Source: an uncultured archaeon
GTDB taxonomy: Archaea > Asgardarchaeota > Lokiarchaeia > Sigyniarchaeales > Promethearchaeaceae
Assembly: GCA_964426185.1 (NCBI GenBank)
Contig: CAYRPF010000024.1
Location: 1 to 32,000, forward strand
Length of the DNA: 32,000 nucleotides
Direction: 5' to 3'
Shown here one piece after another: positions 11-3,742 of this stretch (the first letter of the stretch is position 1; every line of letters begins with the position of its first letter). Below the pieces are notes generated by a model that worked only from the letters and a program-made list of their open reading frames with translations, searched no databases and had not been told where the DNA came from. Position numbers and translations under genes: made by a program.

Positions 11-1462
11 CTATTTTTTCTTTTCTTTCCCGATTTTGTCAAAATCTAATTCTTCCAAAGCTTGAAGCATGGCATCTTCTTCAATTTCCAAATCCACATC
101 ATCATATTCTGAAGCCATAGCTTCAAAATCTGGAGTTAAATCTCCGTCAACTCCAGTAGGGGCATTTACCGAAGTTGATTCTTCCGAAGGTGCAATAGGT
201 TCATTTGAAAATTGTTGAGGTGCTGTTGTTTCACTAGAAGGAGTAGAAGGAGTTGTTGCAGCTTGGCTTTGTTGCCCTGTTAGTGTTCCAATTTCAAAAG
301 AAACATAATCATCTAAAGGTACTGGTGGAACTTCATCTTCATAAATGGGAATTCCATAAGGAAGGTTAGTTTTCTGTTTACGAGATTTTGCTATGGTTAC
401 TTTGGTAGTTGATATTTCTGCAATTTCACTTAAATCTGCCAAGATTTCATCAGGGATTCCTCCAGAAAATACGGAAGTTGGTGGTGTTTTAGAAGATTGT
501 GTCTGAACAGTATCTGGCTCATTCGAAACGGTAGGGATTGGAGTATCGACTGTTTTTGCATCAGAGGCAAAACTATCTAAAGTAGAAAGTAAATCATCCA
601 TAGATTCTTCCAATTCGCTTGTAGAATTGCTTGAATCGATCTTTGGGGAGGGGGAAGGTGTTGAAGGTGGTTTTGATGCGAAACTATCAAGAGCTGCAAA
701 AATATCATCCATATTTTGACTAGGAGTTGCTATGTCTTTTGGAGTTGAATGTATTGGAGATGGAGAAGTAGAACTTACGGGAGCCACTTGTTGCACTTCG
801 TTGATTTGATTAGTCGAAATTGGTTGTGGTGATAAGTTCTCTCTCCCTATCATCAAATCGTTATCAATTTTTATTATATTATTCGGAGAAGGTGTCTTTT
901 CTTCTTCACCACCCCATTCCTTTAAGAATTCTAAAACACCTTCCATGGCTTCCTTATCAGTATCGTTACTTTTATCCATTTGAAATGATTCTGTTAAAGA
1001 GGTACGAGCTTCTTGCTTTAATCGGAAATCTCTATCTCGGCTGGCTTCAATTTCACGTTTCAATTCTTCAGTCATCTGTTTTCCTGCTAAAATATATGCA
1101 AAACGGTGAGCCATATTACGTAAATATTCCATGTAATATCCAACACGTAAAGGATTGGAAATTCCACCAAAAATCATATATTCTTCATTGATAAATTGGA
1201 GAATTACAAATCCATCGTCTGCTTTAACAAGAATTTCCCGTAATTTCCCGTGATTTACAGCAAGACTGAGTCTTTCTGCAAGATCAATAAGTGCCGAGCT
1301 GCTGGCAGTTTCAGCATCAGCATCCATTTCGCTACTGTGTGATGTGGCAACTGCCATTCCAATATGACTTATCACCGCAATTCGTTCAAGATCGGTGCCT
1401 TTTTCAATTTGCTGAATTTCATACATTAATTCTTCGGAAATCTCGGGGGAAACCATTGCCAT
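11..1462 (-). CDS. Roadblock/LC7 (MglB-like) domain protein with long acidic Ser/Thr/Pro-rich disordered C-terminal region
   Basis: N-terminal ~125 aa show the roadblock pattern (RIAVISHIGMAVA...ASSSALIDLAERLS...LREILVKADDGFVILQFINEEYMIFG). A charged helix and ~300 aa of low-complexity sequence follow. Start placed at ATG 1462 (MAMVSP) rather than TTG 1486. Confidence 0.8.
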   Translation of the reverse strand: MAMVSPEISEELMYEIQQIEKGTDLERIAVISHIGMAVATSHSSEMDADAETASSSALIDLAERLSLAVNHGKLREILVKADDGFVILQFINEEYMIFGGISNPLRVGYYMEYLRNMAHRFAYILAGKQMTEELKREIEASRDRDFRLKQEARTSLTESFQMDKSNDTDKEAMEGVLEFLKEWGGEEEKTPSPNNIIKIDNDLMIGRENLSPQPISTNQINEVQQVAPVSSTSPSPIHSTPKDIATPSQNMDDIFAALDSFASKPPSTPSPSPKIDSSNSTSELEESMDDLLSTLDSFASDAKTVDTPIPTVSNEPDTVQTQSSKTPPTSVFSGGIPDEILADLSEIAEISTTKVTIAKSRKQKTNLPYGIPIYEDEVPPVPLDDYVSFEIGTLTGQQSQAATTPSTPSSETTAPQQFSNEPIAPSEESTSVNAPTGVDGDLTPDFEAMASEYDDVDLEIEEDAMLQALEELDFDKIGKEKKK

Positions 1463-1544: not shown

Positions 1545-1582
1545 AGGTAAAAAAGTAAATATAATTTTACTTTCACTTACCT
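1545..1582. promoter_or_regulatory. Imperfect inverted repeat in the divergent promoter region between the roadblock gene and the cdc6-like gene
   Basis: AGGTAA(1545-1550)/TTACCT(1577-1582) and AAAGTAAA(1552-1559)/TTTACTTT(1566-1573) form nested arms. Confidence 0.4.
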
Positions 1583-1625
1583 CTCTTTCTCGGGCTTTAA
1601 ATAGATAAATCCAGTGGTAAGGATA

Positions 1626-2900
1626 ATGCCACTTCAAAATCTAATAATCCCAGCAAATGCAAGTTCTTTTGCCGATTTTTTAAACAATATTGCTGATAGT
1701 CCTAAACCGGGATACGTTGGACCGCGCGCTATCTTCAATCCTCATTATATTCCTCCTAAAATTTTAGTTCAACGTAAAAAAGCAGAGCTTGTATATGGTA
1801 TTTTAAAAGATGCCTTGGAAGATGAATATTCTTCAAATCTCACTGTTTATGGTTTACAAGGTGCAGGAAAGAATCTGCTCATTAACCTAATATTTCAATG
1901 GTTGAGCGCACATGATGTTATCGTAGATATTGGAAAAAATTCTCCTATAATTATTTTAAATGACTGTAAGGATCAAGCCTTAGGTCAGTTTCTTTTCAAT
2001 ATACTGCAAAATCTAAATGACAAATTAGCGCATCAATTAGATTTGCAAGAAAGCCTACAGTGGGACGCAATAACTATGTGGAATACATTTAAATATTTAG
2101 TCAAAAAAAGCCCGCGCTCAATTATTTTATATCTCAGCCAGATTGAATCTATGGAAGAAGGTGTCATTGCGAAAGTTTTAAATTTTGCAAAATCGCTCGA
2201 CAAGTTGCATGTGGTAACCACCATAAACACTGGGAATCATTTTTACGCCTTTAATCAGTATTCTGGATTAGATCATCGAATTCTTATGAATTCTTTAAGA
2301 TCTTCTGATTTATATGAAATAACCCGACAACGGGCAGATATGGCATTTCATCCATGGTTAGAAAAGGATGCAATAAAATTGATCGTAGATTATATCATCG
2401 AATACGGCACGAAAGTTCCTGGCAGTTGCATTAGTATGTTGAAACATTTATATCCTATCGTGGAAGAACAAGGGAATCTAACGGCGGAGGACATTCGAAA
2501 AGTAAGTCAATATTATTTTGAAGGAGTGTCAATCGATTCTCTGACCATCACGGATTATATAATGCAGACTCGTTGGGAAGAACGGCTATTTTTGGATTAT
2601 TTAGTTAATTATTTCCAGAATTCTTCTCGTTTTTACATTCCAGGCAAAGAAATCCAACGTGCCTATCAAATGACTGCAGAAGAGATGGGTTTTACCCAAA
2701 AATCTCATGATATGCTTCAAATGTTGACCAACATAACTCGATCGGAGATACTTCTACCAAGTCATTTTTCCCAAAAATCGGGGGCTGATAAAATTTGGGT
2801 GGAAGATCAAGCCACACTTTCACTTCATTACCTTTCTATGCCAGTTGAGGAAGTTAATCAAGTTTTAGAATTTGGTTTTGGGATTATTCCTGAAAAATAG
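1626..2900 (+). CDS. Divergent Cdc6/Orc1-family AAA+ protein, probably ATPase-inactive
   Basis: FNPHYIPPKI...R N-terminal Cdc6 signature, P-loop VYGLQGAGKN, LYEITRQRADMAF lid helix and C-terminal winged-helix-like region (EIQRAYQMTAEEMG). Walker B is degenerate (ILYLSQIE). ATG at 1626; GTG 1614 is an alternative start. Confidence 0.8.
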   Translation: MPLQNLIIPANASSFADFLNNIADSPKPGYVGPRAIFNPHYIPPKILVQRKKAELVYGILKDALEDEYSSNLTVYGLQGAGKNLLINLIFQWLSAHDVIVDIGKNSPIIILNDCKDQALGQFLFNILQNLNDKLAHQLDLQESLQWDAITMWNTFKYLVKKSPRSIILYLSQIESMEEGVIAKVLNFAKSLDKLHVVTTINTGNHFYAFNQYSGLDHRILMNSLRSSDLYEITRQRADMAFHPWLEKDAIKLIVDYIIEYGTKVPGSCISMLKHLYPIVEEQGNLTAEDIRKVSQYYFEGVSIDSLTITDYIMQTRWEERLFLDYLVNYFQNSSRFYIPGKEIQRAYQMTAEEMGFTQKSHDMLQMLTNITRSEILLPSHFSQKSGADKIWVEDQATLSLHYLSMPVEEVNQVLEFGFGIIPEK

Positions 2901-2917: not shown

Positions 2918-3742
2918 TTAGTTTGAAATCCAAGATGTAATTTTTTTTTGATTACGGATTGGGGAAAATTTGTTTTTCAATTGAATACCTGATTTATATT
3001 TTATTATTTCTAAAACTCGTTCCACCGTTTCATAAGGAGTTAAATGCTCTGTATCAAGCTTAACAATCTTCTTTTTTGCTTTTAAATCAAATTCTTCGAA
3101 TATTTCAGCATATTTATTGAGTACCCTTAAAAGATACTTAAAATCATCTTCATTCCATTTTTGTCGCTGTATATCTAAGGAACCTCGGTGATAAATACGA
3201 TTCATAATGCTTTTTGGTTCAGCATAGAGATAAATAACGTATTCTTTCTGCCATGGAACAGAAATAAAAGTATCATAAATTAAATCATAATCAATTTTGG
3301 GTAAGCCGAGAGCCTTTGCATATATTAGTGTGGAAAGAGGACTTCGATCAAGGATGGCAACATGATTATGTTGGTTACGTATAAATTGACCAATTAAACC
3401 ATTCCTTTCAATCATTTGCTGTTGATAATGAAGTTCAGATCGAAAGGCAATTTGTTTGTTTTTAGAACCAAATGGAACAGGCGGAATGGAGCGTAATCGT
3501 TCTGGAAAAAACTTGATATCAAGGTTATCGCTCAATTTTTTTTTTAGTATTTCATATACAGTAGTTTTTCCAACTCCGTGAACTCCAGCCAGCGAAAATA
3601 CCCAACCATCTTGTTTGGTTTTTGTTTTTTTTCTTGCTTTTGTAACCTTGCTTTTTGAATTTACAATAGAAGAAAGTGATTTGAATTCCTTCTTCTTTTT
3701 ATGATTATTATCTAAAAGTGGTGTGATTCTTTCATCCCTCAT
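2918..3742 (-). CDS. Deoxynucleoside kinase / thymidylate kinase family P-loop kinase
   Basis: P-loop LAGVHGVGKTT, FFPE, ILDRS motif, VIYLYAEPKSIMNRIYHRG lid; Lys-rich N-terminal extension. Confidence 0.8.
   Translation of the reverse strand: MRDERITPLLDNNHKKKKEFKSLSSIVNSKSKVTKARKKTKTKQDGWVFSLAGVHGVGKTTVYEILKKKLSDNLDIKFFPERLRSIPPVPFGSKNKQIAFRSELHYQQQMIERNGLIGQFIRNQHNHVAILDRSPLSTLIYAKALGLPKIDYDLIYDTFISVPWQKEYVIYLYAEPKSIMNRIYHRGSLDIQRQKWNEDDFKYLLRVLNKYAEIFEEFDLKAKKKIVKLDTEHLTPYETVERVLEIIKYKSGIQLKNKFSPIRNQKKITSWISN

Follow-up and report, generated by a model that had tools for sequence, protein, structure and literature searches.

Roadblock proteins serve as dimeric platforms for small GTPases. 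In M. xanthus, the acidic C-terminal (Ct) helix of the roadblock protein MglB binds an allosteric pocket on MglA, and this helix is D/E-rich across phyla, one archaeon included (PMC6785124). Roadblock grooves also accept helices from partners (PMC10933270), and the terminal helix on the disordered tail of RomR binds the roadblock protein MglC (PMC12719032). Bacterial equivalents of terminal helices such as those described below include the MglB Ct-helix (PMC6785124) and a CheZ peptide (PMC5760072). The LD motifs of the paxillin family follow the consensus LDxLLxxL and are bound by domains of many unrelated folds; LD signalling has been dated to amorphean, unicellular eukaryotes and was co-opted from export signals (10.1101/278903).

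A sequence-only reading of a 32,000-nucleotide stretch of Promethearchaeaceae DNA (the window) had proposed that a gene near its start encodes a roadblock protein whose tail carries paxillin-LD-like motifs. The gene is an intact minus-strand ORF of 481 amino acids with its first nucleotide at position 1456 (Table 1). Its N-terminal 125 residues match Pfam PF03259 at E 5e-4, and the MK-D1 orthologue exceeds Pfam's cut-off for Roadblock. The five-stranded sheet between terminal helices and the central helix that mark the family are present in the AlphaFold2 (AF2) model, for which pLDDT in the domain is mostly 76-93 (lowest block 69). Foldseek places this model at a TM of 0.83 with the Thor roadblock 7F8M, and TM values of 0.78-0.83 were obtained against Thor and MK-D1 roadblocks and MglB. 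These findings confirm the roadblock assignment. The Asgard roadblocks 7F8M, 9JUE, 9JQ8 and 7YH1 thus share the fold of the window protein over the domain, but they are single-domain proteins of other subfamilies with 14-22% identity. The closest tail-less paralogue in the genome, about 140-160 amino acids long, is encoded at L100:7067-7546 (G000:C10) and is a candidate heterodimer partner; a second match similar to it is seen across Promethearchaeales.

Table 1. Coordinates of the roadblock gene, its protein elements and the adjoining genes in the window.
Feature	Position	Strand	Basis
Whole gene P0001, 481 aa: Roadblock domain plus motif-bearing disordered tail	11..1456	-	Start from orthologue alignment
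Roadblock/LC7 (MglB/LAMTOR2-type) domain, residues 1-125, including the two terminal helices	1082..1456	-	Pfam, AF2, Foldseek
Charged helix after domain, residues 126-163	968..1081	-	AF2 H130-151; close orthologues share 0.61 identity
Helix A, residues 164-182, D-x-x-A-[LM]-[DE]-x-[LV]-L-x-F-L-x-x-W; Lokiarchaeia-wide	911..967	-	142/159 Loki proteins
Island B, residues 192-222	791..883	-	0.65 identity within the close clade; the first half also occurs in the sister family
Repeat R1 (first motif of the sequence-only reading), variable copy of motif C	674..712	-	Identity 0.34
Repeat R2 (second motif of that reading), recent duplicate	563..601	-	Identity 0.02, 20% column occupancy; DNA similarity to R1
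Motif C, residues 332-346, conserved parent of repeats; close (Promethearchaeaceae) clade only	419..463	-	Identity 0.68
Island D, residues 365-392; MIM2-like core phi-P-P-phi-P-L-[DE]-D-Y at 305-331	281..364	-	Identity 0.77 / 0.71
Island E1, residues 441-455, acidic-aromatic P-D-F ... S-E-Y-D	92..136	-	Identity 0.71 / 0.76
Terminal amphipathic helix E2, residues 456-471; ancestral, common to all tailed orthologues	44..91	-	Profile; AF2 H456-472
Divergent Cdc6/Orc1-like AAA+ gene, head-to-head neighbour, five Asgard lineages (context)	1614..2900	+	Locus comparison
dTMP/dNK-like kinase gene (context)	2918..3742	-	Upstream in 76/80 Loki loci

The tail of ~300 amino acids is S/T/P-rich as claimed (34% S/T/P, with 17% D/E). 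AF2 predicts isolated helices at residues 248-260, 283-300, 336-349 and 456-472 amid linkers with pLDDT<50, and the pTM of this model is 0.35. A second AF2 model, which used a shorter orthologue and 107 sequences to test whether the islands fold back onto the domain, gave a pTM of 0.44, and no globular domain formed in the tail. The mean pairwise identity over 53 close orthologues is 0.74 for the domain, 0.70 for helix A, 0.65 for island B, 0.68 for motif C, 0.77 for island D, 0.71 for E1 and 0.68 for E2, such that several tail islands match the conservation of the domain (0.68-0.77 vs 0.02-0.32 in linkers). Island D is the most conserved tail element, with E[VI][PA]P present in 159/159 Loki proteins. 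Leu467 of E2 is invariant in two comparisons and at least 90% conserved in another, and the terminal residue is aromatic (W/F/Y) in 78%. With its isolated helices and with islands conserved relative to the linkers, the tail constitutes a disordered scaffold that bears conserved islands, and the proposed multivalent scaffold attached to a roadblock domain is upheld. Searches with the tail sequence returned nothing at E<=10 in the PDB and no usable match in the ESM Atlas feature search, and the sole find of an Atlas fold search was a 'hypothetical protein' cluster with 85 archaeal members.

Four tail motifs had been named, and all four are real, residing at 674-712, 563-601, 425-454 and 44-79 on the minus strand within the one intact ORF. 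However, that list is incomplete, as helix A is not on it, nor are islands B, D and E1. Acidic phi-phi-x-x-phi motifs occur three times in the tail vs 0.017 expected, a count reached by 0/20,000 shuffles, but this statistic overstates the case because the pattern was written after the motifs had been seen. Repeats R1 and R2 align with a score of 48 compared with a shuffled maximum of 41 (0/500), and they are also alike at the DNA level. Judging from these alignments, they are a real duplication at both levels, as had been suggested. Copy number varies from zero to four per protein; the repeats are absent from 18/18 sister-family proteins, as is motif C, which is present among the 53 close orthologues. 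R1 and R2 are recent duplicates of a family-specific motif, motif C, and vary in copy number. The expectation that the named motifs form conserved islands in a divergent linker thus holds for motif C and the terminal helix (0.68 each vs 0.02-0.32 in linkers), but not for R1 and R2, which are the least conserved (0.34 and 0.02).

Do these helices resemble LD motifs by descent? If so, they would be genuine LD-type motifs whose receptors are four-helix bundles of the FAT/vinculin kind, and the protein would be a forerunner of the paxillin scaffold. The window protein does share with the paxillin family several acidic amphipathic helices (AF2) within a disordered region, with the correct 0/3/4/7 hydrophobic spacing and an acid at +1, and the many unrelated folds among LD-binding domains (10.1101/278903) also count in favour of this view. 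Moreover, helix A matches strict LDxLLxxL in 61/159 Loki orthologues, and is the only tail element to do so in some of them. Since the same helix does not fit in the window protein, the LD pattern has been gained or lost within the family. None of the four named motifs fits the consensus, nor does any of 87 repeat copies in orthologues, in which the first position is mostly Pro or Met and the fourth mostly Ile. The looser ELM-type pattern [LV][DE]x[LM][LM]xxL matches 31 unrelated proteins of the genome, but not the window protein. LIM domains are absent from the window protein and none was found in the genome (92% complete; weak controls), and FAT and vinculin searches of the same 92% complete genome gave no match, with controls that gave no signal either; thus no known LD-binding domain was found in the host with these weak controls. 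The dating of LD signalling to amorphean eukaryotes and its derivation from export signals (10.1101/278903) also argue against descent, as do the recent, clade-specific repeats.

An equally good fit to the helices is provided by a bacterial peptide. The C-terminal peptide of CheZ (PDB 2FMF; PMC5760072) ends a flexible tail with phi-D-x-L-L-x-x-L-G-aromatic; its spacing and terminal Leu-Gly-aromatic are shared with E2 of most orthologues, and the terminal helix of the sister family has the same pattern. CheZ differs in that it binds CheY receiver domains and is an unrelated protein. Homology to LD motifs is largely refuted, and true LD-type docking is very improbable, the least likely of the readings considered: no named motif or repeat copy fits the consensus, and R1 and R2 are absent from the sister family. 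The LD likeness is a convergence on a generic 0/3/4/7 acidic helix, which bears out the original caveat that it could be convergent. The idea of a eukaryote-style origin is not supported either: the ancestral terminal helix is without an LD dipeptide, bacteria have equivalent helices, and no tailed orthologue was found in the Heimdallarchaeum and Thor genomes that were searched. The subfamily does not support an archaeal origin of paxillin, and the paxillin framing should be dropped. An Arp2/3 CA-like end was considered separately and appears unlikely, as neither the window protein nor its clade retains the Trp. An unrelated 608-amino-acid protein (G000:C7:2092-3915, plus strand) carries a disordered stretch followed by a repeat-like terminal acidic amphipathic helix, and could share a receptor with the tail repeats.

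Orthologues were sought with a profile over 1.84 billion representatives and with genome searches. Harpocratesius, L. ossiferum and P. syntrophicum supply the closest homologues, which places the host among the Promethearchaeaceae (Loki); orthologues are present in MK-D1 (P0014) and L. ossiferum (P0012, NEF87_004479). Tailed orthologues occur in every sufficiently assembled Promethearchaeales genome sampled, and also in Hel, Odin (O. yellowstonii), Baldr, Freya (F. deiterrae and F. guaymaensis) and families f8, f11, f14 and f23; Odin, f10, f11 and f23 are tail-bearing, and family f15 has a divergent, short-tailed form. Common to the tailed orthologues is a terminal helix of the form A-phi-phi-x-A-L-x-x-L-G-aromatic. 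In a Baldr-related orthologue, this helix lies ~25 amino acids after the fold, and tail length grades from there up to ~390 amino acids. Among the matches listed for the Heimdallarchaeum and Thor genomes searched and for several other families, there was no tailed orthologue; the best matches in all of these are tail-less and group in a paralogue clade of their own, with strong support. A topology test does not reject monophyly of the tailed forms as a whole (p-AU 0.44).

This distribution shows a layered history in which the terminal helix is ancestral, and Lokiarchaeia gained helix A together with islands B, D and E1. Motif C is an addition of the Promethearchaeaceae and was then duplicated up to four copies. 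The layout is the known MglB-plus-C-terminal-helix type, expanded in Lokiarchaeia. The proteins constitute a real and conserved Asgard roadblock subfamily with a motif scaffold, which has apparently gone undescribed so far; a literature search on conserved short-motif scaffolds in Asgard disordered tails yielded nothing on it. Eight records titled Thor-, Hod- or Hermodarchaeota (L027, L030, L036, L037, L046, L051, L081 and L082) carry a Promethearchaeales gene block and a Loki-type protein, and their titles probably do not reflect lineage.

We hypothesize, with a probability of about 0.5, that the protein is an MglB-type subunit whose terminal helix docks in a GTPase/roadblock module, with the Loki islands adding partners and the repeats adding avidity. 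The gene would encode a Roadblock subunit of the MglB type that is an orphan, and a scaffold of short motifs would have grown out of its C-terminal extension. Its domain would dimerise like other roadblocks to provide a small-GTPase platform, and the terminal acidic amphipathic helix would fold on a basic, hydrophobic groove of a partner within the module. This partner might be a small GTPase, as for the Ct-helix of MglB, or a second roadblock dimer, in the way that RomR binds MglC and LAMTOR1 binds in Ragulator. Further partners would be recruited by the added islands, and the repeats may raise avidity.

This reading is the most likely because short orthologues share the layout of M. xanthus MglB with its Ct-helix (PDB 6IZW; PMC6785124), namely a Roadblock fold, a linker and an acidic C-terminal helix. 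It is also based on a fold closest to Asgard roadblocks and MglB (Foldseek) and on a D/E-rich C-terminal helix beyond that fold (E2). The host encodes at least 5 MglA-like proteins, about 40 further small GTPases and 11 roadblock proteins. A partner MglA would be expected to have a basic alpha5 pocket; by eye, 4/5 host MglA-like proteins carry K/R in the last helix. The window gene differs from mglB in being an orphan with a tail of up to 350 amino acids and five further conserved islands, and the likeness of the helix is one of layout rather than a sequence-level match. Odin- and Freya-type terminal helices carry basic residues, unlike the DDD-rich MglB helix. In about 100 loci, no mglA adjoins the roadblock gene; the MglA-like gene closest to it is 30 kb off and encodes an acidic last helix. 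The genes conserved next to the roadblock gene encode a Cdc6-like ATPase and a kinase rather than GTPases. In RomR (PMC12719032), a long disordered region likewise terminates in a helix that contains a key Trp and sits on a roadblock dimer, but its head is a receiver domain, whereas the window protein joins head and tail on one roadblock protein. LAMTOR1 of Ragulator (PMC10933270) runs as an extended chain, and its helices keep roadblock dimers in place on a GTPase platform; it is without its own roadblock domain, and no homology to it was found. Five MglA-like genes were identified in the genome, most without an adjacent roadblock gene; one of them (L099:1836-2453; G000:C24:31835-32452) lies just beyond the window end, tail-to-tail with a longin/Rag-like GTPase gene.

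The conserved Pro-rich core of island D raises a different explanation. The protein might be a single-copy, Lokiarchaeia-only ESCRT adaptor, in which island D acts as a MIM2-type motif and the terminal helix as a MIM1-type motif that together mimic an ESCRT-III tail and recruit Vps4 through its MIT domain, while further helices gather GTPases or roadblock dimers. Such an adaptor, which is compatible with the MglB-type explanation, would tie the roadblock/GTPase platform to membrane remodelling. MIT binding of MIM1 and MIM2 has been reported for Asgard proteins (PMC7240154), and the tails of Asgard Snf7 have the same order of Pro motif, acidic linker and terminal helix. The island D core and the Loki Snf7 MIM2 share phi-P-x-phi-P-x-[DE]-[DE]-phi at each position (146 vs 48 sequences), and this 9-residue pattern occurs once among the 2,675 ORFs of the genome, in the window protein. 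Because of this resemblance and uniqueness, the Vps4 link is the most interesting rival. The phi-P-x-phi-P core with an acidic flank lies in the disordered tail of 144/159 Loki proteins, the MIT domain of host Vps4 is very basic, and snf7 resides 4.8-9.5 kb upstream in 48 sister-family loci.

Several results temper this comparison. The window protein has no ESCRT-III core, and island D, with a long conserved aromatic flank, is longer (about 28 amino acids) and more conserved than the Snf7 MIM2. The genome's own Snf7 proteins match island D poorly, and the short core by itself has 87-134 matches across the proteome. The snf7 linkage comes from a single syntenic block, confined to one family and interrupted by unrelated genes; the window's family does not have it. 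The idea of an ancestral MIM2 was rejected for non-Loki tails, as these are unenriched for phi-P-x-phi-P (5/28 vs 3.0 expected). A complex prediction with host Vps4 MIT (A4, residues 1-78) and tail residues 362-476 scored 0.05 with controls that did not fold, and it counts neither for nor against the adaptor. We regard the adaptor as unlikely, at about one chance in five by our reckoning of the evidence. The genome has four Snf7-family genes (L001-L004; G000:C51, C3 and C22), each encoding a MIM2-like Pro motif and a terminal helix, and two of them are head-to-head on C3.

Acidic amphipathic helices could also bind each other or a membrane, with the repeats as stickers in a hub or condensate. 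PopZ is a comparison case for such a helix-built assembly. The sticker-and-spacer layout, the free variation in repeat number (0-4) and the conserved terminal aromatic residue are consistent with this view. However, the strong acidity of the helices makes binding to anionic membranes less favourable, and islands D and E1, being non-helical and sequence-specific, imply folded receptors. Self-assembly or membrane tethering appears somewhat less likely than docking on ESCRT components.

Finally, the gene neighbourhood was considered. The Cdc6-like protein belongs to a distinct subfamily with Asgard members in Loki, Hel-like, Thor, Baldr, Freya, f8 and f14 genomes, with degenerate Walker A/B motifs in the window's clade. 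If the tail were to bind this product, the GTPase platform would be coupled to replication or cell-cycle control. The two genes are head-to-head in most of the window's family (8 loci plus the window), Baldrarchaeia (2), f14 (3) and Freyarchaeum's family (2), and nearly so in a Hel-like genome (1 locus, with one ORF between). In addition, the Cdc6-like gene of f8 faces an MglA-like GTPase gene instead (L167), and a Rag-like GTPase gene precedes it in two f2 loci. However, Odin, f10, f11 and f23 are tailed but without a strong match to the Cdc6 subfamily, whereas Thor has the subfamily and no tailed orthologue was found there; head-to-head pairs can also be explained by a shared promoter region without binding. 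We consider this coupling improbable, slightly more so than self-assembly. In the sister family, the dTMP/dNK-like kinase gene is directly upstream and co-oriented at a distance of about 100 bp.

A conserved DNA element at 1565-1603 (plus strand), upstream of the Cdc6-like gene, comprises TACTTTC, a C/T-rich run and a TATA-like TTTAAATA. It is kept across Loki, Thor, Baldr, Freya and f14 (L005-L013, L087, L103-L107 and L162-L170), also without an adjoining roadblock gene, and may serve as a promoter element or as an operator for autoregulation. By contrast, the mini-ORB-like 8-mer at 1610-1617 was dismissed, since it is unconserved in 16 other intergenic regions. Elsewhere in the genome, a Rab-like GTPase (G000:C9:6551-8467, plus strand) has a ~430-amino-acid Pro/Ser-rich tail with several NPF/PF motifs and a terminal zinc ribbon, and is another motif scaffold.

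Work on the 'eukaryotic signature' of Asgard archaea has mostly concerned folded domains, and short-motif scaffolds in disordered tails have barely been described. If true, the ESCRT adaptor would be an archaeal motif-based link from GTPase signalling to membrane remodelling. The subfamily traces the steps from a prokaryotic MglB-type terminal helix to a multi-motif tail, in which repeat expansion is ongoing.
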